Shown: positions 42,192 to 61,985, counted from the stretch's first letter. The stretch is 64,000 nucleotides of DNA from Escherichia coli (GCF_041248615.1 NZ_CP158426.1); one strand, 5' to 3'. Translations and numbers: made by a program. The notes: generated from the letters alone by a model not told the origin.

Positions 42192-42407
42192 TCAAAGAGA
42201 GAGCGCCACCTGTCCTGATTTCATTGGATGCGGCTGAACCGGATTTGACTCTTTTGGCGTTGCAATCGAACGAACAAAAGTTTCATGGGTAACAAAAGTA
42301 TGGCTGCAGTTAATGTTCTGGCACTGGTTGTAACGCTCTTTGGTCAATGAAGATACCTGAAAACTGCTGCGAGTATGGGCGGCACTTCCACACAGTGGGC
42401 AAATCAT
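42192..42407 (-). CDS. ogr: Ogr-type zinc-finger late transcription activator
   Basis: ~71 aa with CPLC...CQNINC zinc-finger spacing, similar to recalled P2 Ogr; start codon uncertain (ORF runs to 42443). Confidence 0.8.
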   Translation of the reverse strand: MICPLCGSAAHTRSSFQVSSLTKERYNQCQNINCSHTFVTHETFVRSIATPKESNPVQPHPMKSGQVALSL

Positions 42408-42500
42408 CATTTTTCGAGTTCTCCCCATTTTTGCTAAATTCACAATAATGATACCGCATTATTCCATTTTGCAAACTTAAAAGTTCTCCATTGCGAAGAA

Positions 42501-43601
42501 TCATTCCATTTCGAAATCATCAATCCTCACTTCAAGCTCCAGACTGGTCGTAAAACCGTTATCCGGGCTGACGGTATGTGTCAGAGTCGTAATGGTCCAT
42601 TCCGCATCATCTATCGGCTGTTTAAAACCACTGACTTTCACTGGCATTTCCGTGTAGAGATCTGCCCGACCTTCCGCCAGTTGTAGCGAGAATGACGCAA
42701 CGCCGCGTTGCAGGCGTTCCCACTGCATTTTCGCTGCCCGTTCAGCGTTGCTCCGGTTGGCATAAGTGCGATTAAGTACCAGCACGTTTTCATCTGTACC
42801 CACCAGGTAATCGCCCTGCTTCGCTTCCGGCTCTTTCTTCTGCTTCTTAGTTCTGCGCTTACGCTTCACCGTTGTGCTTTCTTTCTTCGCGGGTTCGCGG
42901 GTATGCAACCAGCTGGCAATTACGCCCGTGTAGGCTCCGCGATCTGCCAGGGTAAATCGGTGACTGTCGCCGTCCTTGCGTGTGATAGTGATCACTGGCA
43001 GTGGTTTACCAGTGGCGCTTTTGCCCAGCCCCTGCCGGATGAATAACAGATTGCCATTTTTCACCGACGCGATGGCACCGTACTGTCGCGCCAGCCGCAT
43101 CAGAAAACTGCCGTCACTCTCATTAGTCTGGTCTATATGCTCCACGGGCTTATCCGACAGGTCTTTACCCAGTGCCATCTTCAGCTTGTGCCGCGCGGCT
43201 ATTTCCTTCACCACCTCCCCGATGGTGGCGTTATGCCACGATTTTTCACGGCGGGTATTCAGGGTTTCCCGAAAATCAGCACTTCGCGCCCGGATAGTCA
43301 GGCGGTCCGGTGCGCCAGTGTGTTCAATCTCGTCCACCGTGAATGCCCCTTTCGGGAAAAGCTGCTGCCCCTTCCAGCCCAGCGCCAGCGTAATGACCGC
43401 ACCACGGCGCGGCAGCGCTATTTTTCCATCGGCGTCGTCCAGCTCCAGATCAAGCTGGTCCGCTTCAAAGCCCCGGTTATCCGTCAGCGTCAGCCTCATC
43501 AGGCGGTTATCCAGCACAGTGGTGATATCCCTGCCCTCAATACTGATGTTGAATGCGGGAGTTTTGTTGCCTTTGCTAAGCAGTTCAGAGCTGAAATTCA
43601 C
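42501..43601 (-). CDS. P2 gpD-like tail protein
   Basis: 366-aa ORF at the position of P2 gene D (after U, before ogr). Confidence 0.8.
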   Translation of the reverse strand: MNFSSELLSKGNKTPAFNISIEGRDITTVLDNRLMRLTLTDNRGFEADQLDLELDDADGKIALPRRGAVITLALGWKGQQLFPKGAFTVDEIEHTGAPDRLTIRARSADFRETLNTRREKSWHNATIGEVVKEIAARHKLKMALGKDLSDKPVEHIDQTNESDGSFLMRLARQYGAIASVKNGNLLFIRQGLGKSATGKPLPVITITRKDGDSHRFTLADRGAYTGVIASWLHTREPAKKESTTVKRKRRTKKQKKEPEAKQGDYLVGTDENVLVLNRTYANRSNAERAAKMQWERLQRGVASFSLQLAEGRADLYTEMPVKVSGFKQPIDDAEWTITTLTHTVSPDNGFTTSLELEVRIDDFEME

Positions 43602-48165: not shown

Positions 48166-49338
48166 TTACGCGCTGACCTGGCTGGCGAAATTCACCAGGT
48201 ACTGATCGGTGATGCGCTGACGCAGCATCAGGTTTTCAAGTGGTGGCACTGGCGTGTAGTCGTAATCGATGGTGAGTTTTCCGGCTTTCAGAGTGTCTTT
48301 GTCGTTCACCGACTCATCCAGCCAGCAATCGCCACCAATGAGATAGCCCTGACTGACCAGGCTGCGCATTTTGGCGCGGATACCTTCGATAATGTCCCGG
48401 GCCAGCGACGGGTTAAGCGGTTTATCCACCGCCCACATGTGTGCTTCTGCCATCGTGTCCATCAGCACCTGCGCCGTGCGGGTGTAGTTTTCGAAGGCAA
48501 AGAGCGGGTCATCACTCAGGCAGCGGGAACCCCAGAAGCGGAAACCGTCTTTGCGGATAAGGGTGGTGACGTCGTTCTGGTTCAGCAGACCTGCATCGGT
48601 TGCCGGGTCCTGCAGATCCCAGAACACATCTGCAGAAATTCCGGTGACACCGTTCACGCCCACGTTGGACAGGCTTTTGTGCCACCCAGTCTGCTCATCA
48701 ATTTTGGCACGCAGACCAAGCGCACGGGCGGTGGCATATGCCGTTGCTTCGGCATTCAGCACCGTGTCCCAGCCAGTAAAGTCGGGCCAGATCAGCATTC
48801 CTTCGCGCTGGCTGAAGTTTTCACGGTAAGTGATCGCCTCCTGCACCGTCTTGCAGCCATACGCTGACAGGTAAGCAAACCCACGCAGGCTTTGCGCCAC
48901 ACTCAGCAACTCAGTAGCAACGGCTTTGTTATCGTGACCTGGCACGCCGAGAATGCGCGGTTTAACGCCGAGCTGTGTCTGGGCAGATAACAGGGCTTTC
49001 ATGCCTGTTTTTTTACCTTCAGCAGTCACTGCGCCGATGATATTGGTCGTGGTTTCTTCTTCCGCTTCACCCTGCGGCACACGCACAACAACGGTCACGG
49101 GTTTTGCCTGGTCAGCGATGGCGTCCAGCGAACGGGCCAGCGTACCGGACTCACCCGCTTTACCGCTGGCAGTCAGCACATCAGTGATCAGCACTGGTTT
49201 ATTAAGAGGAAACATTTTTGCATCGGCATCATCGCCCGTGCAGACCATACCCACGATGGCGGTGCTCACCGTGGTAATGGATCGGGTGCCTTCGTTGACT
49301 TCAACAACGCGCACCCCGTGGTGGTAATCCTGAGCCAT
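48166..49338 (-). CDS. Contractile tail sheath protein (P2 gpFI-like)
   Basis: 390-aa [35 protein letters not shown]... Confidence 0.9.
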
Positions 49339-49414
49339 AGTGGCGAACCTCCTGATTGGATTAGGCTTCGCCCTATGTTGAAGTGATTGTGCCTGACAAA
49401 CAGCTAAGCGCAGT

Positions 49415-49432
49415 TGTACCGTTATTCACACA
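49415..49432. promoter_or_regulatory. Candidate Ogr-dependent late promoter element (TGT-N12-ACA) upstream of the sheath gene
   Basis: TGTACCGTTATTCACACAA, ~85 bp upstream of the FI start; shares TGTA...CACACAA with the dyads at 55472 and 61922. Confidence 0.55.
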
Positions 49433-49480
49433 AAATGACGGTATTTGTCTGCTTGCAGGGATAATCAAAATTATGCTGAT

Positions 49481-50047
49481 TCAGGGGGATTCATTGCTCT
49501 TATTTGCCGGAAATTTTCTATAAATGGTAGAAACGCCTACATCAAAAATCAGTGCAATACGCTGTCTTGATTCTCCGGCCTCGAGTAAACGTCCAATCTG
49601 TGCCCACTGTTCAGTGGTCAACTTAGGACGGCGTCCACCTACTCTGCCTTTAGCACGAGCTGCAGCCAGCCCTGCCCTGGTACGTTCAACTATCAGTTCG
49701 CGTTCCATTTCAGCCAGGGCACCCATGACATGAAAAAAGAAACGGCCCATTGGGGTACTGGTATCAATACTGTCAGTCAGGCTTCGGAAATTCACACCAC
49801 GCTGGCGCAACTCTTCTATCAGCGTAACAAGATGCCGCATACTGCGCCCCAACCTGTCCAGCTTCCAGACAACCAGCGTGTCTCCTGCCGATAGTGTCCT
49901 GAGCAGCTTTTTCAGCCCCGGTCTGTCGGACTTGGTGCCACTGATTTTATCCTCAAAAATCCGCTCACATCCCGCACAGTTCAGTGCATTGCGTTGCAAA
50001 TCGGTGTTCTGGTCATTTGTTGACACGCGTACATAGCCAATAAGCAT
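49481..50047 (-). CDS. Pin/Gin/Hin-family serine DNA invertase
   Basis: MLIGYVRVSTNDQNTDLQRNALNCAGCE...VWKLDRLGRSMRHL...; catalytic Ser in VRVSTNDQ; close to recalled e14 Pin and Mu Gin. Confidence 0.9.
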   Translation of the reverse strand: MLIGYVRVSTNDQNTDLQRNALNCAGCERIFEDKISGTKSDRPGLKKLLRTLSAGDTLVVWKLDRLGRSMRHLVTLIEELRQRGVNFRSLTDSIDTSTPMGRFFFHVMGALAEMERELIVERTRAGLAAARAKGRVGGRRPKLTTEQWAQIGRLLEAGESRQRIALIFDVGVSTIYRKFPANKSNESP

Positions 50048-50102
50048 GATCAATCCCCTGAATAAAAACCAGGGATGATGCCAGTTAGCTGTTACCTCTG
50101 CA

Positions 50103-50128
50103 TTTTCTTAAACGTTGGTTTGGGAGAA
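50103..50128. other. Invertase crossover site (pix/gix-like), invertase-proximal
   Basis: TTTTCTTAAACG-TT-GGTTTGGGAGAA, two 12-bp half-sites around a 2-bp core, ~56 bp upstream of the invertase start; the GGTTTGGGAGAA half is identical to the site in H in inverted orientation. Confidence 0.7.
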
Positions 50129-50572
50129 GGTGCTCCAGCTATTGGTGTTCCGTTCTTCTGGCCGTCCGCTGCAATGCCAGATACCGTAATCGAAAGCTGG
50201 TCCGGCATGGTGTTTTTGAAGTTCAACGGCGCGAAATTCTCTGCCACTGATTACCCTGTGCTGGCGAAAGTGTTTCCTTCGCTGGTATTACCTGAAGCCC
50301 GCGGTGATTTCATTCGTATCTGGGATGACGGGCGAGGGGCGGACAGTGGACGAGCATTATTAAGCTGGCAGGCAGCAACATCTTTATCGCAATTTGGAGG
50401 TAATTATCCAGAGGGGTCCGGCCATTCGATTGCTAATCACGATGGAATATCAGCACACGAGCCGGGTTTCTCTCGATACCATTACACCAGTAATTCAGTG
50501 GGTGATGGTGTGAATTTTATAGCCGTCAGACCACGTAACATCGCATTTAACTTTCTGGTGAGGGCTAAATAA
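50129..50572 (+). CDS. Start-less alternative tail-fibre C-terminal segment (Sv'), expressed only after inversion
   Basis: Frame continues in phase from the crossover site; encodes GAPAIGVPFFWPS...LPEARGDFIRIWDDGRGADSGRALLSWQ..., a typical tail-fibre receptor-binding C-terminus. Confidence 0.7.
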   Translation, partial: GAPAIGVPFFWPSAAMPDTVIESWSGMVFLKFNGAKFSATDYPVLAKVFPSLVLPEARGDFIRIWDDGRGADSGRALLSWQAATSLSQFGGNYPEGSGHSIANHDGISAHEPGFSRYHYTSNSVGDGVNFIAVRPRNIAFNFLVRAK

Positions 50573-51165
50573 TGAAACCTGTTTTTGATAAAAATGGGCT
50601 GGCTACAGTGCCGGGCGATATGCGTTGTTTTTATTATGATGCTGAAACATCTGAGTATACGGGCTGGTCTGATGAATATATTAATACTGGCGTAAGTATG
50701 CCCGCCTGTTCCACTGGAATTGACCCTGGCGAAAACATTCCGGGAAGAGTGGCAGTATTTACAGGTAAGGGATGGAGCCATGAAGAAGACCATCGCAATG
50801 AGACTGTTTACTCAATCGAAAATGGTGCTGCTGTTACAGTGGATTATATCGGTGCCATCAAAAACGGTTATGTCACGCTTTCACCGTTAACGCCATATGA
50901 TAAATGGGATGGTAAGAAATGGGTGACAGATACTGAGGCACAACACGGTGCCGCAGTAGAAGCGGCAGAAGCACAGCGCCAGTCACTGATTGATGCAGCA
51001 ATGGCTTCCATTAGTCTGATTCAGCTGAAATTACAGGCCGGACGTAAACTGACGCAGGCAGAAACAACCAGACTTAACGCTGTGCTGGATTACATTGACG
51101 CGGTGACGGCAACAGATACCAGCACCGCGCCGGATGTCATCTGGCCTGAACTGCCGGAGGCGTAG
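50572..51165 (+). CDS. Tail fibre assembly protein, cognate to Sv'
   Basis: 197-aa ORF MKPVFDKNG... with Tfa-type C-terminus (AVLDYIDAVTATDTSTAPDVIWPELP). Confidence 0.8.
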   Translation: MKPVFDKNGLATVPGDMRCFYYDAETSEYTGWSDEYINTGVSMPACSTGIDPGENIPGRVAVFTGKGWSHEEDHRNETVYSIENGAAVTVDYIGAIKNGYVTLSPLTPYDKWDGKKWVTDTEAQHGAAVEAAEAQRQSLIDAAMASISLIQLKLQAGRKLTQAETTRLNAVLDYIDAVTATDTSTAPDVIWPELPEA

Positions 51166-51577
51166 GCCATTCAATATCTGGAGCACTGGAGGTATCAACC
51201 AGTTCCAGTGCGTCCAGATAATCCAGCCACAAATTATATTGCGCCAGTTCCTCACCTTTCAGACGACCAATAGCCGCTTTACCAGGCCATTGTTTACTGT
51301 TCATATAATCGTTGGCCTGATTAATCAATTGCTGCTTCTCCAATTCGGCTGCAGCAATTTGTTCCTCATGTGTTGGTGGTGGAATTTCAGACCATGCAGG
51401 AAAACCATTTTCTCCAGCGATACGGATTTTTCCTTTCGGCGGTAATCCGGAAAACTCAATATACACTTGCTCATCAACTTCAACAGCATCATCTGGCCAT
51501 GAGTCAGCTTGAGTGTAATCCTCTTTCATCTCCAGCGGATAGAAAGAGTTTGTAGTCGCGGAATATATGTAATTCAT
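51137..51577 (-). CDS. Tail fibre assembly protein, cognate to the currently expressed fibre tip
   Basis: 146-aa ORF with Tfa-type C-terminus (LWLDYLDALELVDTSSAPDIEWPTPP); converges on and overlaps the other tfa by 29 bp. Confidence 0.8.
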   Translation of the reverse strand: MNYIYSATTNSFYPLEMKEDYTQADSWPDDAVEVDEQVYIEFSGLPPKGKIRIAGENGFPAWSEIPPPTHEEQIAAAELEKQQLINQANDYMNSKQWPGKAAIGRLKGEELAQYNLWLDYLDALELVDTSSAPDIEWPTPPAVQAR

Positions 51578-51598
51578 TTTTCACTCCATATAGCTAAA

Positions 51599-52999
51599 TT
51601 AACAGCCTAACGCTAAAAATGAAGCGCCGAGGCCAGGAGTACTGGCTCTGGATATAAATTTAACCGGGTCGGGACTAAAACCTGCACAGGCAATATAACC
51701 AACAGCCCCGCTATCTGGTGTGTAGTCTTGTGAGACCAAAACACGCAGACATCTGTTTGGAAATGCAATCGGGAAATGGGTTACTACATCCTGTGCAATG
51801 CCTGGTGCGCCGATTGAGCCCCACTGAAGAATAAAACCTGATGGTAATTTTTGATATCCAGTACCTGAAACAGAAAGCGTGAAGCTACCCATATCAGGTA
51901 TCTGATTCGCCCCTGTCCCTACATTCCTTTTAGCCGCTTCTCCCAAACCAAGGTATGTGAGAAGACCAGCTACATCCTTTCCACTCAAATTGGTAAGCGT
52001 ATTGTCCAGCGGTTGTTTACCTGACAGCGCATTAAGCATTGTCGTGGCAAAGTTCGGATCATTCCCCAGCGCCGCTGCCAGTTCGTTCAGCGTATCCAGT
52101 GCCGCAGGTGCAGAACCCACCATTGCTGCAATCGCCGATTTCACAAAAGCCGTGGTGGCAATCTGTGTATTGTTGACCGACTGTGCCGCAGTAGGTGCTG
52201 TTGGCGTTCCGGTAAGTGCCGGACTCGACAGTGGCGCTTTTAGTTCCAGCGCATTGTTAATGGTGGTGCTGAATTTGGGGTCATTGTTTATGGCCGCGGC
52301 TATTTCTTTCAGCGTGTCCAGCGTGGCTGGCGCACCATTAATAAGAGCCGTCAGTGCCGCCTGAACAAACGCGGTGGTCGCAAGTTGCGTGGTATTATTC
52401 CCCGCCGCTGGCGTTGGTGCTTTGGGGGTTCCGGTAAACGTCGGGCTGGCTTTTGGCGCGTACTGTGAATGCGGGTCCAGTGCGGCAAGATGTTTTGCCA
52501 TCAGATCATCCGCGTACACCTTCAGCTCCAGTGCCTTGTCATCCACATACTTGCGGGTTGCCAGCACTACAGCAGGGTCGATTTTCAGGGTGATATTGTC
52601 CGTGCTGCTGGTAATCAGCACCATGCGCACGGTCTGAGTGCGCCCGCTACCTTCAGCCAGTTGCGGCTTATAGCTTTCCGGGCAGTTGCCCACGGCAATC
52701 AATGCCCCTGACTCATCAAACAAGCCCACTTCACGTATCCACCAACCGCCCTCGTTTTCAGGGATCACCTGTTCGGCAATAATCTGACTGCTGTTCTGCG
52801 GGTCGATATAGAGCATATTCAGCGCAGCCCGGCGTTTCTCATTTACCAGTGCAGTCTGCTTTGAGTCTGGCGTTGGCAATGCTCCGCCGCCATCGCCCAC
52901 CGCCATATGGGTAATTTTTAGCGGCACACCGAGCGCGGCGGCGCTGGCAAGTTTCGCCGCGCCAATATCCGTCAGCAGGGTATAAAATTTTGTGCTCAT
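51599..52999 (-). CDS. Tail fibre protein (P2 gpH-like), constant N-terminus fused in current orientation to variable tip Sv
   Basis: 466-aa ORF; crossover site lies in-frame at codons ~346-354 (YLGLGE). Confidence 0.85.
51938..51963. other. Invertase crossover site (pix/gix-like) inside the tail fibre gene
   Basis: TTCTCCCAAACC-AA-GGTATGTGAGAA on + strand; shares 14/14 TTCTCCCAAACCAA with the reverse complement of the site at 50103-50128. Confidence 0.7.
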
Positions 53000-53601
53000 G
53001 GATTCACTCTCATTGTGTCAATAACATGGACCGCCCCGCCTTCATGCGCGGTGCCGCCGGAAATAATTGTTTCGTTGATATACGGATAGATCGTGATTTC
53101 TTCGCCAAGATAGCTGGCGGCTCCCACCCAATGCGGGCCGCTGGTCTGCAGGTTGATGGACATGCCGATCATGTGACGGCTACATGGTTTGGCATCGCTT
53201 ATCAGTCGCTCAAGTTCCAGATAGGTATCTTCAGTGATGCCCTGGTCCTGCACGCCGATATCCAGACGAAACGTGCCCGGTGCCTCTCCGGTCTGCCACC
53301 ACTCAATAATGCGGATCAGAAAGCCGAACGGCTCCACCACCCGCCGCACGGCACTGGTGGTCCCTTTATGCTGATGAACATAAAAAGCATCCTTCACCAC
53401 CTGGCGCTTGACGCTTTCTGTCCAGCCCTCGTCCCAGCGATCCACAGAGAACGCCCAGGCGAGATAAGGCAGGAAACTGATCGGACAGGTTGCCGGGTTC
53501 CACAAGTCACGCAGCGGCACCTGCAGATCAGAAATCCCGCTGCAGGTTTGCGCCAGTCGGCGCTCCAGTAGTGTTGAACCCGGTGGCAGCAGACTATTCA
53601 T
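52996..53601 (-). CDS. Baseplate assembly protein (P2 gpI-like)
   Basis: 201-aa ORF in P2 order between J and H. Confidence 0.8.
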
Positions 53602-54502
53602 CCGTTCCTCCGTTGGTTACGCTCCACTGCGTACATGATGCCGCCTGTGTTTTGTTCAGGACCACATCCGCCAGCGGTGAAGCCAGCTCCACACGCTGCA
53701 CTCCCTCAACATGCAGGGCGGCAAAGATGGCGCTACGGCGAATATCCCGACCAAGCCGCGTCTGACTGGCGATGTACTTCTGCAGGCTGGCTTTTGCCGC
53801 TGCCATTACCGGCTCTGCTTCCGGTCCCGGATAGAGAAAAATGGTGGCTTCCACGCGATACGGGATGATTTCTGCGCTGCGAACCGTAAGACGGTCAGCC
53901 ACCGGGCGGACGTTCTCACTGTTCAGAGCTTTTTCCACCACGTCCAGCAGGTCTTTTTCTGCAGTTCCATCGCCTTCGCGGCTAAGGACAGTCAGCACCA
54001 CCTCTGCAGGTGCCGGGCTGGTTGCACTGGCATCCGCCACCCGACCGTCGGCGCTTCGGGCATGAAATTCATAAGCTGCAGTTGGCCCCGCAACTGAAAG
54101 CCCTTCAAAGGCTGCAGGCACACGCAGGCGTAACGCTTCATCGCTTTCCATCACAGCTGCAACGGGCGGCACAGCGTCATTATCAGCAGGCGTCACCGTC
54201 AGGCGTTTTACGTTGTAGTTGGCAGCGAGCTGGTCAAGATCGCTGCCCATCGCGTAAGCCGCCATCACAGCCTGCGCGGCTTCGTTAATGCGCTGGCGCA
54301 GAAGCAACTCACGGTAAGCGTTCTCCTGCAGCAATTTGGTGACGGGTTCAGATTCCAGTTCCAGCGTGCGGATCACTGCTTCCTGCTCATCTTTCGGATG
54401 AAGCGCCACAAATTCGGCCTTGCGTTCGGCAAGCAGCGTCTCAAAGTCCGGCACATCCACAATCTGCGGCGCAGGCAACTGCGAAAGGTCAATCACTGCC
54501 AT
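53594..54502 (-). CDS. Baseplate assembly protein (P2 gpJ-like)
   Basis: ORF 53594-54541; start placed at MAVIDLSQLPAPQIV. Confidence 0.8.
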   Translation of the reverse strand: MAVIDLSQLPAPQIVDVPDFETLLAERKAEFVALHPKDEQEAVIRTLELESEPVTKLLQENAYRELLLRQRINEAAQAVMAAYAMGSDLDQLAANYNVKRLTVTPADNDAVPPVAAVMESDEALRLRVPAAFEGLSVAGPTAAYEFHARSADGRVADASATSPAPAEVVLTVLSREGDGTAEKDLLDVVEKALNSENVRPVADRLTVRSAEIIPYRVEATIFLYPGPEAEPVMAAAKASLQKYIASQTRLGRDIRRSAIFAALHVEGVQRVELASPLADVVLNKTQAASCTQWSVTNGGTDE

Positions 54503-54848
54503 TCTCTGCTCCTGTTGATACGGAAAGGGAAACAGGCACACCGTTATTACGCCGCCCGCTCAGCGCCACCACCATTGAACCGTCAAAATTGCTGTTGATG
54601 GTGATGGAATCCAGCGTCATCCGTGGCTCCCAGCGACTCAGTGCCACATACACAGCCGACATGACCTGCAGGCGTAACGCCGGATTTTGTGGCTGATCTA
54701 TTAAAGCCGACAGCAGGGAACCATATTCCCGGCGGGCAATGCGGCTACCCTGCGGTGTCAGCAGAATGTCCCGCACCGACTGGCGCAGATGGTCAATATC
54801 AGTAATAGCTTTACCGCTGGTATTGTTCATCCCGATATAAAGCGTCAT
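54489..54848 (-). CDS. Baseplate protein (P2 gpW-like)
   Basis: 119-aa ORF between V and J. Confidence 0.8.
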   Translation of the reverse strand: MTLYIGMNNTSGKAITDIDHLRQSVRDILLTPQGSRIARREYGSLLSALIDQPQNPALRLQVMSAVYVALSRWEPRMTLDSITINSNFDGSMVVALSGRRNNGVPVSLSVSTGAENGSD

Positions 54849-55423
54849 ACCGGGCCTCCGGTTGTGTCGCCGCCTTTCAGGACGCCAGTATGCTGATGCG
54901 CATCAACCACGATCCCGTTAGAACTCATTGCACCGCCACCCTGGGTAACGCCACCATTGATCACCACTTCGCTGTTAATACGCGTGCGGTCAGCCTCCAG
55001 CACAAACTCACTGGTTTTCAGGGTGATGTTGTCGGCAGCCTCAATGACCATGGATTTGATGCCCCTGACATACCAGCGCCCGGTGGCGGGTTCGTATTCA
55101 AACCAGCCACCATCAGGATGTTCTGTCACGCAGGCTTCCGCCGACGTTGACGGCGGTGCGAACTGATTCGAATAGATGGCGGGCAACGCAAAGGCGGTTT
55201 CCAGATTGCCACCCAGGCTGAACAGCACAACCTGCTCGCCCACAGACGGTTTCCACCAGGTGCGCGATTTGCCCGCGCGCAGTGTCAGCCAGTTAATCCA
55301 GTTGGTTTCAAGGTCGCCCGTTTTCACCCGGCAAAGCCAGTTCTCCCGGTCCACCTCGGTGACTACACCAGTGCGGATCAGGTTGGTGATAAGGCGCATG
55401 ATTTCAGTCAGTTGTGCATTCAT
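54845..55423 (-). CDS. Baseplate spike protein (P2 gpV-like)
   Basis: ORF 54845-55501; start placed at MNAQLTEIMRLITNLIRTGVV by similarity to recalled P2 V. Confidence 0.8.
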   Translation of the reverse strand: MNAQLTEIMRLITNLIRTGVVTEVDRENWLCRVKTGDLETNWINWLTLRAGKSRTWWKPSVGEQVVLFSLGGNLETAFALPAIYSNQFAPPSTSAEACVTEHPDGGWFEYEPATGRWYVRGIKSMVIEAADNITLKTSEFVLEADRTRINSEVVINGGVTQGGGAMSSNGIVVDAHQHTGVLKGGDTTGGPV

Positions 55424-55471
55424 GAGAGCGATCCTTGCACAACCGGGTAGAGTGATGTAATACAGAGCGTA

Positions 55472-55489
55472 TGTATGGAGAACCACACA
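55472..55489. promoter_or_regulatory. Candidate Ogr-dependent late promoter element (TGT-N12-ACA) upstream of V
   Basis: TGTATGGAGAACCACACAA, ~55 bp upstream of the V start. Confidence 0.5.
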
Positions 55490-55518
55490 AAAGAGAAACA
55501 ATTTCTAAGGTATTTAAG

Positions 55519-56385
55519 ATGACACAAATCGCAATTTATGGATTTAATTTCACTAAAAAAATCACATTTGACGGTGGTGAGTTAACTCCTATTTTCAGTT
55601 CATGGAGTGAGTTAAAAAAAAATGGCTGGGCTAATGATAGGTACATCCTCACTGGTTTTTTCAAACCAAACTCGAATAACTACGCCACTCAACAGCAGCT
55701 TATTTTTGATTTACAAGCAGTTCTTAGTTTTATTGAACAAAAAAATGTAATCATTTCAGGAGAACTTGAAAATGATGAAACCCCTTTCAATTTCAAACCA
55801 TCTCTACCCAAAAAGCTTGACAAAAAAAGAGATAAGGGTGCGGGCATTATCATCATGGAAGATTATTTTGCACCAAACAGCCGAGAAAATTTTATTTGCT
55901 TAGCCATGGAAAAACTAAATAGTAAAGCCATGCTAAAACAAGATGCCTTTAGAACATCATTTTTTAAATCAATGCTAGCTTTCCGCGACTCAATAAATTA
56001 TATCGACGTCAGATATTATTTATTATTCTCGGCACTAGAAGCACTTTGCAGATTTATTAAAAATGACTACTCCCCTGCCAAAACACCACAAATAATCACT
56101 CAGGTTTTAAAAGAATATGGTTTTAATGTCGAAAAAACAGGACATACATTAGCTCAAAGAAACATTATGCATTACTGCAAACTCCGTCACTCGCTGTTCC
56201 ACAATGGTAAATACATTGCCTATCTTGATGAAAAAAACTCAGATGGCAAAATTGAAATTCAAGATTACTCATCAAATTTGAATTTACTGGTGCCACTTGT
56301 ACTAATGAAATTCATAGGATTTGATGACAATTATATAAACTGGGACTCATGGATTGATAGGAATCCATTTATCAGTAAAAAGTAA
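55519..56385 (+). CDS. AT-rich hypothetical cargo protein (~288 aa) between tail genes V and S; function unknown, candidate accessory/defence gene
   Basis: ATG at 55519 (ORF frame opens at 55471); visibly AT-rich and Lys/Asn/Ile/Phe-rich; opposite strand to all flanking late genes; no P2 counterpart at this position; C-terminal R-x4-H motif (RHSLFH). Confidence 0.7.
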   Translation: MTQIAIYGFNFTKKITFDGGELTPIFSSWSELKKNGWANDRYILTGFFKPNSNNYATQQQLIFDLQAVLSFIEQKNVIISGELENDETPFNFKPSLPKKLDKKRDKGAGIIIMEDYFAPNSRENFICLAMEKLNSKAMLKQDAFRTSFFKSMLAFRDSINYIDVRYYLLFSALEALCRFIKNDYSPAKTPQIITQVLKEYGFNVEKTGHTLAQRNIMHYCKLRHSLFHNGKYIAYLDEKNSDGKIEIQDYSSNLNLLVPLVLMKFIGFDDNYINWDSWIDRNPFISKK

Positions 56386-56411
56386 ACTAAATTTTATAAA
56401 TGTGGTTTTAT

Positions 56412-56858
56412 TTATCTCTGTAACCAATTTAGCAAAGCATCCTGAATGACAGTTTCCACATCATCATTTACGCCTAGGAGACGACGCTCTGCGTAACGGA
56501 CCTCCGGTCCTCTTCGACTGATGCGATCACGCAGGCCGTAGTGATGAACGCGGGCAATGCGCTGCACCTGACCTTCAAACTGCACGCTGGCAGAATCGGC
56601 GCTGGCGGCAGTTTTCAGGTATTTTGTGGTGCGCAGCTTTGTAAACATCTGACGTTTGATGCGCCCCTTTTTGCTGCGTGCTGTTACCCGTCGCGGCTCA
56701 TAACTGCTGCCATCTGGATTGCGCTGCATCCTGATGTTCTGCTGCTGTGTCCGGCGCAGTTCCTGCGCCAGCTGGCGCATCATGCGACTTCTCGTGGCTG
56801 GTTCCAGATTCGCCAGCAAGGCACTCAACCAGTCGTCCACCTTCTGCAGTTCAGCCAC
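56412..56858 (-). CDS. Tail completion protein (P2 gpS-like)
   Basis: 148-aa ORF MAELQKVDDWLSALLANLEPATRSRMMRQLAQELRR... Confidence 0.8.
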   Translation of the reverse strand: MAELQKVDDWLSALLANLEPATRSRMMRQLAQELRRTQQQNIRMQRNPDGSSYEPRRVTARSKKGRIKRQMFTKLRTTKYLKTAASADSASVQFEGQVQRIARVHHYGLRDRISRRGPEVRYAERRLLGVNDDVETVIQDALLNWLQR

Positions 56859-57303
56859 GTTTCACCGTCCACATTTCTTCAGGTTCATCGGGTTCTGCTA
56901 CAGCTTCAACGCTCGACACACTGCCGTCAGTGCTGACCAGCACACGCTCCGTCAGTTGCAGGTTCAGGCTGATATCACAGACATCGTTGCGCAGAATATC
57001 CACCTCAAAGGTGAATAGTTTTTCCCGTAACGCCGGGTTATTGATGGCATCGGGCTGGTTATCCCTCAGCCACAGCAAAACCGGGGCCATCAGCAGATTC
57101 TGGTCGCCGCTGAAATCCTCAATCACCGCGTTCAGGGTGTAACGGTACTCCCACGACATGGAGCTGGCCCCCGTAGCAACCAGCGAACCGTTATCCACAA
57201 ACAGATGCAGTTTGTCCGGGTTATTGCGGACATAAGGCACCGCTTTATTGAGGGCGTGGCGCAGGGATTGTGGTTTGTTCACTGTTTCGCTCCTGACACG
57301 CAA
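56851..57303 (-). CDS. Tail completion protein (P2 gpR-like)
   Basis: 150-aa ORF overlapping S by 8 bp. Confidence 0.8.
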   Translation of the reverse strand: MRVRSETVNKPQSLRHALNKAVPYVRNNPDKLHLFVDNGSLVATGASSMSWEYRYTLNAVIEDFSGDQNLLMAPVLLWLRDNQPDAINNPALREKLFTFEVDILRNDVCDISLNLQLTERVLVSTDGSVSSVEAVAEPDEPEEMWTVKRG

Positions 57304-57535
57304 TAATCATGTCCACTTTGTCTGCACAGACCGCCCAGGCGGCCTCCGTTTCATCCAGCAATGCGTTCAGATCACCGTTAGTGCGCGGCGCTGCCTGCTC
57401 CAGCCGACACGGCGTCACTCGCGGACAACCACTGACGGTAAGCTGCACCTCCGGTGAGTGCCGGACGTTCCCGCAGCCGGATAATGTCAGCAGGCAAAGG
57501 AGTATCAGCCCAGCGGCGTAAATCCTCGTTCTCAC
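57245..57535 (-). CDS. Outer-membrane lipoprotein spanin (Rz1/LysC-like), out of frame across the lysB/R junction
   Basis: Lipobox LLTLSGC; Pro-rich mature part; overlaps lysB 3' end and R 5' end. Confidence 0.65.
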   Translation of the reverse strand: MRTRIYAAGLILLCLLTLSGCGNVRHSPEVQLTVSGCPRVTPCRLEQAAPRTNGDLNALLDETEAAWAVCADKVDMIIACQERNSEQTTIPAPRPQ

Positions 57536-57806
57536 GTTTCAGTTCCTCGATCCGGCGTTGTCGTTGTCTCAGCAGTGCGCTGGTCTGTTCTGCTTCGGCG
57601 TAGAGCCGCGCCTGCTCCCGATTATTGGTTTCAGCCAGAATGGACAGACCGATCAGCTGGCTGTTTTTCTTCGTCAGTTCTTGCGCTTTACTTTTCAGCG
57701 CCGTGCGCTGCGTTTCGATGGTGTGGCTGGCGCTGTTAAGCCGCCACGACTGCCAGCCCAGCGTAACGAGTGCCAGCGCCACCACTACTGCCAGCGCACG
57801 CGTCAT
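57378..57806 (-). CDS. Inner-membrane spanin (Rz/LysB-like)
   Basis: 142-aa ORF with N-terminal TM segment and charged coiled-coil region. Confidence 0.7.
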   Translation of the reverse strand: MTRALAVVVALALVTLGWQSWRLNSASHTIETQRTALKSKAQELTKKNSQLIGLSILAETNNREQARLYAEAEQTSALLRQRQRRIEELKRENEDLRRWADTPLPADIIRLRERPALTGGAAYRQWLSASDAVSAGAGSAAH

Positions 57807-58318
57807 AGTCCAGCTCCTTTAAGGCACCAGGCCATCTCCCGCGCACGGCGGTTATCCAGCCCCTGATTAAACACACCTTTTACATACACCCAGCGCGGCA
57901 ACTGTCGGCACGCATCCGCCCAGCGCCGCTGATTGAGCAATTTCACCAGCGTGGAACTGCAGGCATTGCCCGTACCCACGTTGAAGGCAAACGACACCGC
58001 AGCGTCATACACCTTCTGCGGCGGCTGTTGCTTCACACACCTTTCCAGCGCCCGCTCCACACGCAGCACGTTGGAGATCAGCCCTTCTGCTGCCTGTCGC
58101 TCCGTAATGGTTTTGCCGGGAATGACGCCCGACGTATTACCAATGCCGTCAGTCCAGACACCCGCGCTGCACTGATACGGCTGCAGGCGACAGCCTTCGT
58201 AATCGGCAATCAGTTTCAGCCCTTCCACGGAGGTGTGAAGCTGCTGAAAACCCGGCAGCATGGCAGCAATAGCCAGCACGGCCCCGACAAGGCAGCGTTT
58301 AACGATTGATGGATTCAT
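57803..58318 (-). CDS. Phage lysozyme (endolysin) with weakly hydrophobic Gly/Ala-rich N-terminus (possible SAR type)
   Basis: 171-aa ORF; N-terminus RCLVGAVLAIAAMLPGF then VEGLKLIADYEGCRLQPYQCSAGVWTDGIGNT. Confidence 0.8.
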   Translation of the reverse strand: MNPSIVKRCLVGAVLAIAAMLPGFQQLHTSVEGLKLIADYEGCRLQPYQCSAGVWTDGIGNTSGVIPGKTITERQAAEGLISNVLRVERALERCVKQQPPQKVYDAAVSFAFNVGTGNACSSTLVKLLNQRRWADACRQLPRWVYVKGVFNQGLDNRRAREMAWCLKGAGL

Positions 58319-58514
58319 AGTCCTCCCGCGAGATCTGCCCGTCGCGCAGAAGCTGGTAGGCTTTGTGTTTGTAGTACCAGTTGATAGCCAGCATCAGCAC
58401 ACCAATCATCAGGCCGCCCAGCGTTGAGGCATCCTTGATGGACAAATCGCCCAGCCAGGCCAGCACGACGGCGATGCAATACGTGATAAAGGCGCTGATT
58501 CGCTCAAGCGTCAT
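58299..58514 (-). CDS. Holin (two predicted TM segments, 71 aa)
   Basis: Small ORF immediately upstream of the endolysin with hydrophobic stretches ITYCIAVVLAWLG and LGGLMIGVLMLAINWYY. Confidence 0.65.
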   Translation of the reverse strand: MTLERISAFITYCIAVVLAWLGDLSIKDASTLGGLMIGVLMLAINWYYKHKAYQLLRDGQISREDYESINR

Positions 58515-58517
58515 AAT

Positions 58518-58721
58518 TCAGTCCCATAGCTGGACGGTCTGCACGGTGGTGGTAGTCGGAATGTCCGGCAGCTCCACCTGCAGCCCGTGAGGTAAAAAGG
58601 GGCCGTATTCGGCAAGCCCCGGATTTGCCTTCAGTACCTGCTCCGTGACACCCTGCGTGCGCCCGTAATGACGCCAGCAAAGCGCGTCCACCGTGTCATA
58701 CTGATGCGCACGCACTTTCAT
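58518..58721 (-). CDS. P2 gpX-like tail protein
   Basis: 67-aa ORF between L and the holin, in P2 order. Confidence 0.7.
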   Translation of the reverse strand: MKVRAHQYDTVDALCWRHYGRTQGVTEQVLKANPGLAEYGPFLPHGLQVELPDIPTTTTVQTVQLWD

Positions 58722-59185
58722 CAGATAAGCTCCACTGTGCAGTGCGGCGCATCCTGCACCCGGCTGATGGCCCAGCGGGCATCACGCCACAAATCACCGC
58801 TTGCTTCCGCCAGTTCCTCGCCTCGCTTCACACCGGACGCCGTGGCGTCATAGTCCTGATAACGCTCGTTGAGCATGGCGCGTGCCCAGCAGTAAACCGC
58901 GTTGAAATAGTGCTGAATGCGCTCACTTTTGCCGTCCAGCTGTTCTGCCGGAACCTCTGCCAGCGAGGCATAGCCCAGCATCTGCTGGCGTCTGCGAAAC
59001 TCATACAGCTCTGCGTTGACCTCCGAAATTGCCGACAGCGCAACCTGCTTTAGACGCGGCTGCGTCACCGTGCCGTCAGTGCGCATCACACTGCGAAACT
59101 CCGACAGGTCCACATCAGGCCAGAACGGCGTATTTCTGATGATTTCCGCCTGTTCCGGTGCCTGTTCTGGCGCAACAAACTTCAT
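58721..59185 (-). CDS. Head completion protein (P2 gpL-like)
   Basis: ORF 58721-59248; start placed at MKFVAPEQ; C-terminus ELWRDARWAISRVQ resembles recalled P2 L. Confidence 0.75.
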   Translation of the reverse strand: MKFVAPEQAPEQAEIIRNTPFWPDVDLSEFRSVMRTDGTVTQPRLKQVALSAISEVNAELYEFRRRQQMLGYASLAEVPAEQLDGKSERIQHYFNAVYCWARAMLNERYQDYDATASGVKRGEELAEASGDLWRDARWAISRVQDAPHCTVELI

Positions 59186-59280
59186 GCTGCTTTCTCCTGA
59201 AATAAAGGGCGGTGGACGGGGTTTTGATGTGGCAGAGCCTTTCGCCACCCCGTGCCGCCCGTGCGCGGGGGCACGTTCTG

Positions 59281-59931
59281 TCAGCGGCTGTCATTGCGCA
59301 GTCTGCGCTCCAGCTGCTGTTTGTCTTTTTTCACGCCACAGCGGGGATCGAGCTGTAACGCATGGTTGAGATGGTTAAGGGCAGAAGCCGGATTGCTTTC
59401 ACTCAGGACAGCGCCAATCGCTTTATGCAGACGCGCCCGTGACTGGTCCGGCATATCCAGACCGTCTGTCAGCTCCAGCGTCTGCAACAACAGATCGGCA
59501 TCAAAGCCGGTGGCGGCAAGCATTGCGCTCTGCGCCGCGTCTGCCATTTCCTCTGCCAGCACGGTCTGCACATTGCGGTTACCCAGCGGCATCACCCAGC
59601 CATGACGCAGGGCATGACGCCCGATCTCCAGCGCCCCGGCATAATCTCCGGCATCAATGCGCCACAGCATCACGTACATCAGCACGTCATCCTGCTGTGC
59701 GCCTCCGGCAGTCAGGACACCCTCTGCCCAGGCGGCGTACTTCGGCAGCAGCTCCACCTTGATTTCCGCTTTTTTGACCGTGGACTGAACGCCCTTGAGA
59801 CGGCGGCGGTCTTCCGCCAGTTGCAGCAGCATCAGGTCATAGCCCGATGCGTGGCGAACACTGCCGCCCTCGCGGGCGGCCTGTTCAGCCTGAACGCGCA
59901 GGCGATGCTGCCGTGCGGGACTCAGGCTCAT
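59281..59931 (-). CDS. Terminase small (endonuclease) subunit (P2 gpM-like)
   Basis: 216-aa ORF between N and L. Confidence 0.8.
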   Translation of the reverse strand: MSLSPARQHRLRVQAEQAAREGGSVRHASGYDLMLLQLAEDRRRLKGVQSTVKKAEIKVELLPKYAAWAEGVLTAGGAQQDDVLMYVMLWRIDAGDYAGALEIGRHALRHGWVMPLGNRNVQTVLAEEMADAAQSAMLAATGFDADLLLQTLELTDGLDMPDQSRARLHKAIGAVLSESNPASALNHLNHALQLDPRCGVKKDKQQLERRLRNDSR

Positions 59932-59934
59932 GGA

Positions 59935-60993
59935 TTACGCTCCGGTTTCGGCTGCGGCGGCGCTGAAATCACCAATCTGGATGTTTTCCACCAGTGCGGC
60001 GCAGCGGTAGTCCTCAACCACATAGGCTTCGTTAACGGATTCAAAGTTGTCAATCCGGTCACGTTTCGGGTTGTCGATAACTGAACGACGGCGGGTGTCT
60101 TCCTGCCAGTAGATGGACAGGTTATCCAGACGGGTGATCAGCAGCGCATTCGGCGGGAAGAACGGCGCACGCACGGCCTGCAGGCCACCCATGCGTTTCT
60201 GACTGATGATCATATCGGCAGCCAGTTTTTCACTGTTTTCCTGCTCTTTGTTGACCAGCGGGAAATACTTGTCAGACAGCAGTTCACGACCACAAATCAC
60301 CACCAGATCGTCATCGTCCTGGTAGACCACGTCGATAAGCTCATTGACCGCATCCATCACCACAGCGTCCAGGTTGGCATATTCGCCCCCTTTCCCGACT
60401 TTCACCGCACCCGGTGTGGTTTCACCGCCCGTGGTGGTGCTGCCCATGACGTGATCCGGTGCATCCTCACGGATTTTCTGCAGCCAGCCTTTATTCACAT
60501 CCTGCAGTAGCGGGTTTTCGCTACGGTTGGAGGTTTTCGCACGCTTCACGCCGTTAAAACCGATCATGATGCGGTCCAGTGCCTGACGTTTCACGATGGC
60601 ATCACGGATGCGCACCTGGAAATCCTGAAACTTCGCCCACAGGTCCAGCTTCGCGTAGGTCAGTACCGTGTCAAAGTTGGTCTGCTCGCATTTGTATTCC
60701 ACATCGACCATCAGCGTCGGATCGACAGGCTCACGCTCTTTTGCGGTGGTATCAGTGGTTCCGGCAATGGTGCTGCCAACACCCAGCCCCAGCAACTGAC
60801 CAGACTGCTCAGTCACTGGCGTGACGTTAATCAGCGTCAGGAATGCGGCGGATTGCTGGATCTGGTCTTCCAGCGTCTGCTGCACGGACGGCTCCACGGT
60901 GAACTTGCTGGACAGTTCTTCAACTGCCACACCGTTCAGACGCGCCAGCTGCTGCAGGTAAGCGTTAAAAGCAAAGCGGGTATTCTTCTTCAT
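59935..60993 (-). CDS. Major capsid protein (P2 gpN-like)
   Basis: 352-aa ORF MKKNTRFAFNAYLQQLARLNGV... Confidence 0.9.
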   Translation of the reverse strand: MKKNTRFAFNAYLQQLARLNGVAVEELSSKFTVEPSVQQTLEDQIQQSAAFLTLINVTPVTEQSGQLLGLGVGSTIAGTTDTTAKEREPVDPTLMVDVEYKCEQTNFDTVLTYAKLDLWAKFQDFQVRIRDAIVKRQALDRIMIGFNGVKRAKTSNRSENPLLQDVNKGWLQKIREDAPDHVMGSTTTGGETTPGAVKVGKGGEYANLDAVVMDAVNELIDVVYQDDDDLVVICGRELLSDKYFPLVNKEQENSEKLAADMIISQKRMGGLQAVRAPFFPPNALLITRLDNLSIYWQEDTRRRSVIDNPKRDRIDNFESVNEAYVVEDYRCAALVENIQIGDFSAAAAETGA

Positions 60994-61009
60994 CAGGTTT
61001 TGTGCTCCA

Positions 61010-61843
61010 TCAGCAATTGGTCAGAGTGTCAGCGGGGGCGTTACCGCCTGTTGCACGCTGGCGGTAGTCCTGGCGGCTGTCTTCATGGCTCAGCTTGTCC
61101 ACCAGTTCGTTAAAGGCGGTCAGCTGTGCCTGCAGGGCAGTCTCCAGCTCAGACAGGCGTTCTTCCTGCTCAGACAGGGATTTTTCGGTGCGCGCACTCA
61201 GGTTCTGCTGCTCAGTGGCGACCAGTTCCACGGCCTTATGCACATCAGAGAACCGGGCGTCATCGGACTGCTCTTTTTTGGTGAACAGCGCCGTGACACG
61301 GGCAAACAGGGACGGTTTGTCCTCCTGGATTTCTTCCAGTTCGATCACCGTTTCCTCTGCAGCGGTAAAGAGATTGGCAGGATTCTGCTTGCGGTTTGCC
61401 AGCGGGTTATGGGCTGCACTGGCGCTGAATGTCAGCATTTCAGTGCCCAGACTGGCAGGGTCATCAGTGGCAGCCAGGCCGACCAGGTAGGCTTTGCCCG
61501 TATCAGCGAACTTCGGGCTGACTTCCATAGAGGTGAATAATTTCTGGCCTTTTTTCACCAGCTCCACCAAGGACTCCGTTGGCTCAACGTCGGCATACAG
61601 CGCCATCTTGCCTGCCAGCGGACCTTCCGTGATTTCTTCAGCAAACAGCGCCGTCACCTTGCCGTAGCGGTTAAAGGTGCTTTCCGGCAGATAAGACTTG
61701 ATGTGCTCAAGGTTAATCAGCGCGGTGTACACCGCCGGGTTGTAGCTGGCTGCCATCTGTTCCAGCCATTCACGCTGGATTTCGCGTCCGTCGGTGGTGG
61801 CACCTTCCACCCCGATGCGAAAACGCTTTGCTTTCACTGTCAT
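61010..61843 (-). CDS. Capsid scaffolding protein (P2 gpO-like)
   Basis: 277-aa ORF upstream of the capsid gene. Confidence 0.85.
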   Translation of the reverse strand: MTVKAKRFRIGVEGATTDGREIQREWLEQMAASYNPAVYTALINLEHIKSYLPESTFNRYGKVTALFAEEITEGPLAGKMALYADVEPTESLVELVKKGQKLFTSMEVSPKFADTGKAYLVGLAATDDPASLGTEMLTFSASAAHNPLANRKQNPANLFTAAEETVIELEEIQEDKPSLFARVTALFTKKEQSDDARFSDVHKAVELVATEQQNLSARTEKSLSEQEERLSELETALQAQLTAFNELVDKLSHEDSRQDYRQRATGGNAPADTLTNC

Positions 61844-61921
61844 GAGCCGTGCTCCGTTAGAAAAAACTTACTGGAGCCTTATGGTTGCGGTGATGGGGGC
61901 AGTGAAACAATGCACGGTATT

Positions 61922-61939
61922 TGTACCGACAACCACACA
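61922..61939. promoter_or_regulatory. Candidate Ogr-dependent late promoter element (TGT-N12-ACA) in the divergent O/P control region
   Basis: TGTACCGACAACCACACAA in the 142-bp gap between O (-) and P (+). Confidence 0.5.
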
Positions 61940-61985
61940 AACCGCAGGCGGGGAAAGCCTTCATTCAAGGCTGTAGGTTTGTGCC

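Follow-up and report, generated by a model that had tools for sequence, protein, structure and literature searches.

What switches on the late genes of the P2-like prophage carried by E. coli NRZ14408? We analysed a window of 64,000 nucleotides, which contains only the late half of this Elveevirus-like element (integrated between ybjL and rcdA). The initial annotation had placed three TGT-N12-ACA dyads there, at 49415-49432, 55472-55489 and 61922-61939, and had put them 55-90 bp upstream of the first genes of late operons. All three are exact at those positions: TGTACCGTTATTCACACAA (49415-49433) before the tail sheath gene FI, TGTATGGAGAACCACACAA (55472-55490) before the baseplate gene V, and TGTACCGACAACCACACAA (61922-61940) between the scaffold gene O and the terminase gene P; the strings quoted here have 19 nt, and the TGT-N12-ACA core to which the earlier end coordinates refer has 18 nt. 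Measured from the dyad centre, the ATG begins 55.5 to 87.5 bp away, in agreement with the annotation (FI: 85.5, ATG at 49338, minus strand; V: 57.5, 55423, minus; O: 87.5, 61843, minus; P: 55.5, 61986, plus). We consider it very probable that the three dyads are operator sites of the prophage's own Ogr-type late activator and that they control four late promoters.

The dyads precede the F, V, O and P operons, whose genes were identified by Pfam. FI, which opens the F operon, lies at 48166..49338 (Phage_sheath_1 and Phage_sheath_1C; RefSeq agrees), the baseplate spike gene V, first of the V operon, at 54845..55423 (Phage_base_V, Apex; also in RefSeq), and the capsid scaffold gene O, first of the O operon, at 61010..61843 (Phage_GPO, E = 1.7e-112), all on the minus strand; the terminase large subunit gene P heads the P-Q operon on the plus strand (61986..63752; Terminase_5, Terminase_6N, Terminase_6C). 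A consensus scan, which is a weak test, found no sigma-70 -35/-10 pair in late-gene orientation at the three promoter regions, and -10-like hexamers are present where P2-type geometry expects them.

The TGT-N12-ACA consensus, the promoters PP, PO, PV and PF, and the CX2CX22CX4C motif of Ogr are known from earlier work (PMC3931495, PMC5694545). The initial annotation had likened the dyads to Ogr/Delta-activated P2 late promoters, and this is borne out by an intact ogr gene and by the P2 record, which has activator sites at the three syntenic places: pO/pP at 3057-3087 (transcription starts 3016 and 3127), pV at 10239-10266 (start 10308, the V ATG) and pF at 17555-17583 (start 17626-28). According to the record's annotation, the P2 site centres lie 55-58 bp from mapped transcription starts, and one 'activator binding site; pO, pP promoters' serves starts 55-56 bp to either side. 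Dyad-to-ATG distances in the prophage and P2, respectively, are 85.5 and 83 bp for FI, 57.5 and 55.5-57 bp for V, and 87.5 and 95.5 bp for O. In the direction of transcription, the P2 sites read TTGTGTC.., TTGTGCT.. and TTGTCTG.., and those of the prophage TTGTGTG... The two phages share gene order, the three site positions, a single site for divergent pO and pP, a TTGTG-type half-site, a 72-aa C4 zinc-finger activator and a divergent non-essential gene beside the pV site (orf30 in P2); a dyad centre 55-58 bp from the transcription start and transcription of V from its own ATG are predicted for the prophage from P2 geometry. They differ in that the prophage sites are perfect, whereas P2 has TGT-N12-CCA at F and O/P, and N11 or CAA at V; since P2's own sites are imperfect in this way (CCA, N11 spacing), a perfect dyad is neither necessary nor sufficient. 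Moreover, the cargo gene of the prophage is unrelated to orf30, and an invertase lies upstream of pF where P2 has Z/fun.

The activator gene, ogr (42192..42410, minus strand), is encoded by the same element as the dyads. Its 72-aa product carries the zinc finger CX2CX22CX4C, is matched by Pfam Ogr_Delta at 77.6 bits (cut-off 26.3; E = 6.7e-22), is named 'ogr/Delta-like zinc finger family protein' in RefSeq and, although it shares only 51% identity with P2 Ogr along its full 72 residues, keeps C4, C7, C30 and C35. After induction, Ogr would bind each dyad, whose centre would lie about 55-58 bp ahead of a transcription start, and would recruit host sigma-70 RNA polymerase, through the alpha-subunit contact described for P2, to promoters with a weak -10 and no -35. 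The dyad at 49415-32 would then drive pF leftwards through FI-FII-E-T-U-D, and that at 55472-89 would drive pV leftwards through V-W-J-I-H from a start at or beside the V ATG. The dyad at 61922-39 would serve both pO, leftwards (O-N-M-L-X-lysis-R-S), and pP, rightwards (P-Q), probably from the P ATG. We infer Ogr binding, Ogr dependence, the -55 geometry, the alpha-subunit contact and the timing in this prophage from P2 and 186. The early region of the prophage is 186-like (CI, CII, Fil); in phage 186 the late activator is named B and is repressed by CI. Class I activation by CRP is comparable, with a site near -61.5 and an alpha-CTD contact, a dyad-bound upstream activator bringing polymerase to a promoter with a poor -35. 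The dyad finding is correct but ordinary, the mechanism being a textbook one: an uncharacterised E. coli prophage would keep the classical P2 Ogr switch, and four late promoters can be annotated. Taken alone this matters little; the comparative by-products are somewhat more useful.

The real evidence for the dyads is position and conservation rather than pattern counts. Among related loci, TGT-N12-ACA stands at a fixed offset from the start codon in all 240 (80 each for V, FI and O), with a position spread of 1-8 bp within each set. Each of the 80 V loci has exactly one such dyad at -63 to -66, although 23 different sequences occur upstream and the S-V spacers include at least 10 that are unrelated; in all 80 FI loci it lies at -87 to -94 from the FI ATG, among 64 distinct upstream sequences of several visibly different types; and in all 80 O loci it is kept, with changes confined to the N12. 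Conservation is independent of the flanks, the offset holding even where flanking sequence is unrelated, and the survey yields a clean operator definition, T-TGT-N12-ACA-A at fixed offsets. Counts are more equivocal. The initial annotation had judged an extended pattern shared by the dyads, TGTA-N8-CACACAA, unlikely by chance; its frequency (three occurrences against 0.03 expected from shuffles) favours that judgement, which is weakened by the pattern having been defined after the sites were seen. Without the extension, TGT-N12-ACA is no commoner in the window than chance predicts (13 found, 15 expected), the one observation in favour of regarding the dyads as chance matches. Synteny with the P2 sites, the extended pattern and the 240 conserved loci speak against this; the chance of a dyad starting within an 8-bp range is about 0.002 per independent sequence family. 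We regard coincidence as exceedingly improbable, effectively refuted by the comparative data.

We also scored the DNA with a matrix trained on relatives' sites only, the window's own three sites being left out and the TGT and ACA columns being fixed by the way the training sites were chosen. The dyad loci rank top both in the window and across all 36 kb of the prophage, the latter scan being one that the initial annotation had named as a check: pF scored 21.9 bits, the O/P dyad 21.2 and 19.0 bits, and pV 17.9 bits. Applied to the P2 genome, the same matrix placed the annotated O/P and F sites second and third. Of 20 shuffled windows, one reached 20.5 bits, above three of the five listed strand readings of real sites (17.9-21.9), so the matrix alone is not decisive. 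Two weak matches, one inside D at 42678-42703 (13.7 bits) and one at 55505-55530 (11.9 bits), have scores that shuffled controls also reach, and were rejected. The scan of the early/immunity region returned no additional site, which counts against the dyads binding some other dimeric regulator, be it a host protein of CRP/FNR type or a phage repressor. The TGTG...CACA half-sites do resemble the outer bases of CRP sites. However, the CRP consensus TGTGA-N6-TCACA amounts to TGT-N10-ACA, and the spacing is N12, not N10, in the window and throughout the 240 related loci; CRP also belongs to a different protein family from Ogr, and the dyads sit exactly at the positions of P2's annotated activator sites. 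A regulator other than Ogr is, on this evidence, very unlikely. The operator family extends beyond P2: Psid and PLL (Delta) of the satellite P4 and Pag of PSP3 have TGT-N12-ACA operators, and their activators belong to Pfam Ogr_Delta (PMC3931495), so that both families are common to these systems and the prophage.

The dyads might instead be intact relics, no longer a working switch, in a prophage that is defective or never induced in this strain. Two fragments of the tail-fibre region are labelled pseudogenes by PGAP, and the window covers the late half alone. Against this, the strain's RefSeq record shows the prophage at full length, about 34 kb from ogr to int, and includes genes for repressor, replication, portal and terminase; neither ogr nor any late ORF that we checked is truncated. 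Where PGAP sees pseudogenes there is a Cin/Gin-type invertible segment, bounded by 32-nt inverted repeats at 50103-34 and 51932-63, which explains the pattern; an H ORF of 466 aa is open. We therefore think a defunct switch improbable. The satellite activator Delta is a tandem two-domain protein, and the window has no satellite genes.

The pF dyad (49415..49432, minus strand) reads TTGTGTGAATAACGGTACA in the direction of transcription, has the top matrix score and is syntenic with the P2 pF site. A -10-like ACATAG/CATAGG lies at about 49372-49378, P2 geometry places the predicted transcription start at about 49366-49368, and FI has the Shine-Dalgarno sequence AGGAGG ahead of its ATG. Compared with relatives, the mosaic breakpoints are of two kinds, one at the FI ATG (49339) and the other immediately upstream of the dyad (49433-49441); these junctions mark out the promoter as a module spanning dyad to ATG (49339..49441, minus strand). 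A 10-mer, ACAAATACCGT, adjoins both the pF and the pO dyads; because it is missing in a relative with the same pF (breakpoint 49441), the pF promoter has no need of it.

The divergent O-P control region is a 142-bp spacer (61844..61985) with only one strong site, the common pO/pP dyad at 61922..61939, which serves both directions and reads TTGTGTGGTTGTCGGTACA towards O. For pO there is a -10-like CATAAG at 61879-61884 and a predicted start at about 61873-61875; for pP, a -10-like TAGGTT at 61974-61979 and a predicted start at about 61986, the A of the P ATG. By this geometry, which draws on the starts annotated in P2 and on comparison with Fels-2 and ST13, the P mRNA is probably leaderless, in contrast to P2, where the P ATG lies 78.5 bp from the dyad centre (55.5 bp here) behind a 23-nt leader. 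A later start codon for P is implausible, as the Terminase_5 domain begins at residue 11. Fels-2 is nearly collinear with the prophage here (spacer of 142 bp; distance from the dyad 55.5 bp to P and 87.5 bp to O), ST13-OXA48phi12.1 has the same dyad geometry, and the counterpart hexamer in both is TATGTT, six nt ahead of the P ATG. A fourth dyad at 61980-61997 (TGTGCCATGAACACCACA, 17.8 bits), which overlaps the P ATG, was considered as a second Ogr site and rejected: it is imperfect in Fels-2 (..CCA), has N13 in ST13-OXA48phi12.1 and is broken in one of 80 close relatives. Its TGT lies in the conserved spacer between -10 and ATG and its ACA is codon 4 of P, and it is probably a by-product. A terminator-like hairpin called at 61915-61928 is inside the promoter and overlaps the dyad, and we do not regard it as a terminator.

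The pV dyad (55472..55489, minus strand) reads TTGTGTGGTTCTCCATACA in the direction of transcription. Within the promoter (55424..55490, minus strand), a -10-like TGCAAG occupies 55434-55439, and the predicted start is 55423-55425, at or beside the V ATG, so that dyad geometry predicts a leaderless or near-leaderless V mRNA. In the P2 record the V-operon start is the first base of the V CDS. Across relatives, Shine-Dalgarno pairing ahead of V is weak, with a median of -1.5 kcal/mol vs. -6.6 for FI. Our literature search on P2 gene V as leaderless gave nothing usable, and the statement relies on coordinates from P2's GenBank record.

Variation among P2-like phages in the S-V region is already known (PMC3091744, PMC6823313). 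We delimited an exchangeable AT-rich cassette there (the 'orf30 locus', 55424..56420), holding the pV promoter and a cargo gene, from the blastn breakpoints seen with 10 relatives that carry other cassettes or none. DNA homology of 91-95% ends exactly at the V ATG (55423-55426) and returns only between 56421 and 56513, within the 3′ end of S, which sets the far boundary. As homology ends exactly at the V ATG, the V promoter, dyad and core, is part of the exchanged segment; the earlier view that the cargo ORF was inserted without disrupting this promoter does not hold, the whole promoter having been swapped with the cassette. The pV promoter here differs in sequence from that of cargo-less relatives and would be its equivalent in function only. 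In 60 of 79 relatives' loci the S-V spacer is 68 bp long without cargo; in the rest it is 553-1539 bp, with a GC content of 0.31-0.35.

The cargo ORF (55519..56385, plus strand), divergent from V, encodes 288 aa, belongs to phrog_4373 and has an invariant RNALFH (Rx4H) motif; its product looks like a HEPN-domain protein, a class with an Rx4-6H motif in an all-alpha fold. The cargo gene has no Pfam or PADLOC match and no similarity to P2 orf30, and a profile search against PDB sequences returned no significant match. Control of pV by Ogr could be complemented by a second role of the pV dyad, with Ogr or the pV polymerase shutting the cargo gene off at late onset. The cargo start is only 38.5 bp from the dyad centre, which leaves no room for a cargo 5′-UTR or promoter clear of the Ogr site and the pV core. 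Across all cargo cassettes examined, 22.5-40.5 bp separate the dyad centre from the cargo ATG and 55.5-57.5 bp separate it from the V ATG. By eye, a candidate cargo promoter can be drawn on the plus strand (TTGCAC at 55435-40, the complement of the pV -10-like hexamer, and TGTAAT at 55456-61). However, its 15-nt spacer is short, it is not clearly conserved in other cassettes, and upstream of the cargo ATG the consensus scan gave no promoter on the plus strand; we hold this second role to be rather doubtful.

We propose, tentatively, that in this phage lineage the essential late promoters do not belong to a fixed backbone but travel inside exchangeable cassettes: the S-V cassette with HEPN-type cargo would bring the Ogr site and pV core, joined at the start codon of a leaderless V mRNA, the pF module would likewise run from dyad to ATG, and terminase P would also be leaderless in the Fels-2/Elveevirus clade. 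If this is true, cargo interlocked with an essential promoter would be hard to lose, and Ogr or polymerase could silence it at late onset. The mosaic junctions lie at start codons, so that promoters move together with cargo at two known hotspots, of which S-V ('orf30') holds an unannotated HEPN-like gene family.

A P2-like prophage (Peduoviridae) contributes its late half to the window (42.2-64 kb); identity to Escherichia phage Cartapus, Klebsiella phage 4LV2017, and phage 500465-1 is ~96%, and the 186-like early region is located outside the window. The chromosome of E. coli NRZ14408 matches the window at 100% identity, and there the prophage, ~34 kb from ogr to int, is flanked by ybjL and rcdA. 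The late genes are on the minus strand, with D, U, T, E, and FII between ogr (42192-42410) and FI (48166-49338); a tail-fiber region and then I, J, and W precede V (54845-55423), and the remaining genes fill the stretch between S (56412-56858) and O (61010-61843). The divergent cargo ORF (55519-56385) and P (61986-63752) are on the plus strand.

The TGT-N12-ACA dyads reported in the initial annotation are present exactly as described upstream of FI (TGTACCGTTATTCACACAA, 49415-49433; pF), of V (TGTATGGAGAACCACACAA, 55472-55490; pV), and between O and P (TGTACCGACAACCACACAA, 61922-61940; pO and pP). Read along transcription, all three are TTGTGTG-N8-TACA, and their centers lie 85.5, 57.5, 87.5, and 55.5 bp from the start codons of FI, V, O, and P, respectively. 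The extended pattern TGTA-N8-CACACAA had been considered unlikely by chance, and shuffling agrees (three found vs. 0.03 expected), but it was the sites themselves that defined this pattern, and the bare TGT-N12-ACA shows no enrichment across the window (13 found vs. 15 expected), so that significance must rest on position and conservation.

Conservation was assessed in viral contigs, with 80 loci per gene for V, FI, and O. The V proteins are 95-99% identical, and the regions upstream of V comprise 23 distinct sequences with at least 10 unrelated S-V spacers: a 68-bp spacer without cargo in 60 of 79 relatives' loci, in which the dyad begins 4 nt after the S stop codon, and nine other length classes that are AT-rich cassettes of 553-1539 bp. 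A single TGT-N12-ACA is present in every V locus (80/80), each time beginning 63-66 bp ahead of the V ATG, and the distance from dyad center to V ATG is also 55.5-57.5 bp in Cartapus, in P2, and in distant cassettes with cargo homologues (57 and 35% protein identity). The FI loci have 64 distinct upstream sequences of several visibly different types, all with the dyad at -87 to -94. At the O loci the spacer is nearly invariant, and the few substitutions in the dyad are all inside N12, none in TGT or ACA.

A scan of the whole prophage with a weight matrix trained on relatives' sites, the window's own left out, gave the three dyads the top ranks, both within the window and across all 36 kb of the prophage; the TGT and ACA columns of this matrix were fixed by the choice of training sites, and 20.5 bits was reached by 1 of 20 shuffled windows. 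On the P2 genome the same matrix ranked the annotated O/P and F sites second and third. A second perfect dyad in the window, TGTGCCATGAACACCACA (61980-61997, 17.8 bits), lies across the start codon of P, at 58 bp from the shared dyad. It is probably incidental to the conservation of the spacer and coding sequence, since Fels-2 and ST13-OXA48phi12.1 do not conserve it and 1 of 80 close relatives has a disrupted copy. A 10-mer, ACAAATACCGT (minus-strand reading), occurs just upstream of the pF dyad (49434-49450) and just downstream of the pO dyad (61911-61921); it is probably not required, since one relative with the same pF module is without it.

Ogr-type late promoters are known to have a TGT-N12-ACA consensus at four promoters (PP, PO, PV, and PF), and the activator Ogr has a CX2CX22CX4C zinc finger (PMC3931495, PMC5694545). 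Pfam assigns the ORF at 42192-42410 to Ogr_Delta (E = 6.7e-22); all of its 72 residues align gap-free with P2 Ogr at 51% identity, the four cysteines included. The P2 record annotates one activator binding site for pO and pP (3057-3087), with the P-operon (3016) and O-operon (3127) transcription starts 55-56 bp on each side of its center, so the single O/P dyad of the window is exactly the known P2 arrangement. The P2 pV site is at 10239-10266, with the V-operon start (10308) at the first base of the V CDS, and the pF site is at 17555-17583, with the start at 17626-28. The P2 sites (TTGTGTCAGTGATAAGCCA, TTGTGCTGTCGATTAGCCA, and TTGTCTGGTAGTTCTACAA) have the promoter-distal TTGTG half-site in common with the window dyads, but are less perfect.

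In a simple consensus scan, none of the three regions had a sigma-70 -35/-10 pair in late-gene orientation. Hexamers resembling a -10 element lie at the expected distance from the dyads: ACATAG/CATAGG at about 49372-78 (pF), TGCAAG at 55434-39 (pV), and CATAAG at 61879-84 (pO) on the minus strand, and TAGGTT at 61974-79 (pP) on the plus strand, with transcription starts predicted at about 49366-68, 55423-25, 61873-75, and 61986, respectively. The P2 mechanism is the best explanation of the dyads: Ogr would bind each about 55-58 bp upstream of the transcription start and recruit the host polymerase to promoters with a weak -10 alone. The sites, their geometry and conservation, and the activator gene are observed here; Ogr binding, alpha-subunit contact, and timing are carried over from the established P2 and 186 systems. 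The P2-syntenic sites, conserved offsets, and ogr homologue support the initial reading as Ogr-type late promoters, a further example of a well-understood system, except for what it said of the cassette.

P2-like phages are known to vary at the S-V ("orf30") locus (PMC3091744, PMC6823313), and the cargo had been thought to have inserted without disrupting the V promoter. Homology (91-95% DNA) to relatives with another or no cassette stops at the V ATG (55423-55426) and does not return until 56421-56513, within the 3' end of S; the dyad-to-ATG sequence is unrelated to that of cargo-less relatives. The V promoter was therefore not spared: the exchangeable segment (55424-56513) holds all of pV and the last codons of S, and, judging from these alignments, each S-V cassette brings its own version of the V promoter. 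Breakpoints at pF fall either on the FI ATG (49339) or a short way upstream of the dyad (49433-49441), delimiting a dyad-to-ATG module, and pF likewise appears to be a swapped promoter module.

The 288-aa cargo product, a putative HEPN-like protein, has no match in Pfam or PADLOC and no relation to P2 orf30 or Cartapus gp14. It belongs to phrog_4373; in other prophages its homologues sit at the same S-V hotspot, and elsewhere they adjoin resolvase or integrase genes. P2 orf30 is likewise divergent beside the pV site. In all cassettes examined the cargo ATG is 22-40 bp from the dyad center, so the cargo 5' UTR or promoter must overlap the predicted Ogr site, and regulatory interplay between the two is possible. 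A candidate cargo promoter read by eye at 55435-55461 (+; TTGCAC, 15-nt spacer, TGTAAT), whose TTGCAC is the complement of the pV -10-like GTGCAA, was not picked up by the consensus scan and is not clearly conserved; transcription from it would begin just short of the dyad and exclude simultaneous use of pV.

Shine-Dalgarno pairing is almost absent upstream of V (median -1.5 vs. -6.6 kcal/mol for FI), which is consistent with the P2 annotation of V as transcribed from its own ATG. Fels-2 and ST13-OXA48phi12.1 have the same 55.5 bp between dyad center and P ATG as the window, and in all three, six nt separate the ATG from a TAGGTT or TATGTT hexamer (window 61974-61988); we therefore predict that P mRNA is leaderless in this clade, in contrast to the P2 transcript with its 23-nt leader.

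The Hin/Gin/Cin-type DNA invertase gene (49481-50053, minus strand) adjoins an invertible segment of ~1.86 kb ending in 32-nt inverted repeats (50103-50134 and 51932-51963, core TTGGTTTGGGAGAAG), the right one within tail-fiber gene H. Alternative tail-fiber and assembly ORFs lie there on both strands, and the segment probably explains the PGAP pseudogene labels at 51494-51961 and 52610-52999. Just past the right end of the window (NRZ14408 record 23502-26911), genes for a RES-family NAD+ phosphorylase and a P-loop NTPase adjoin the portal gene and are likely defense or toxin cargo at the P2 "TO" hotspot.
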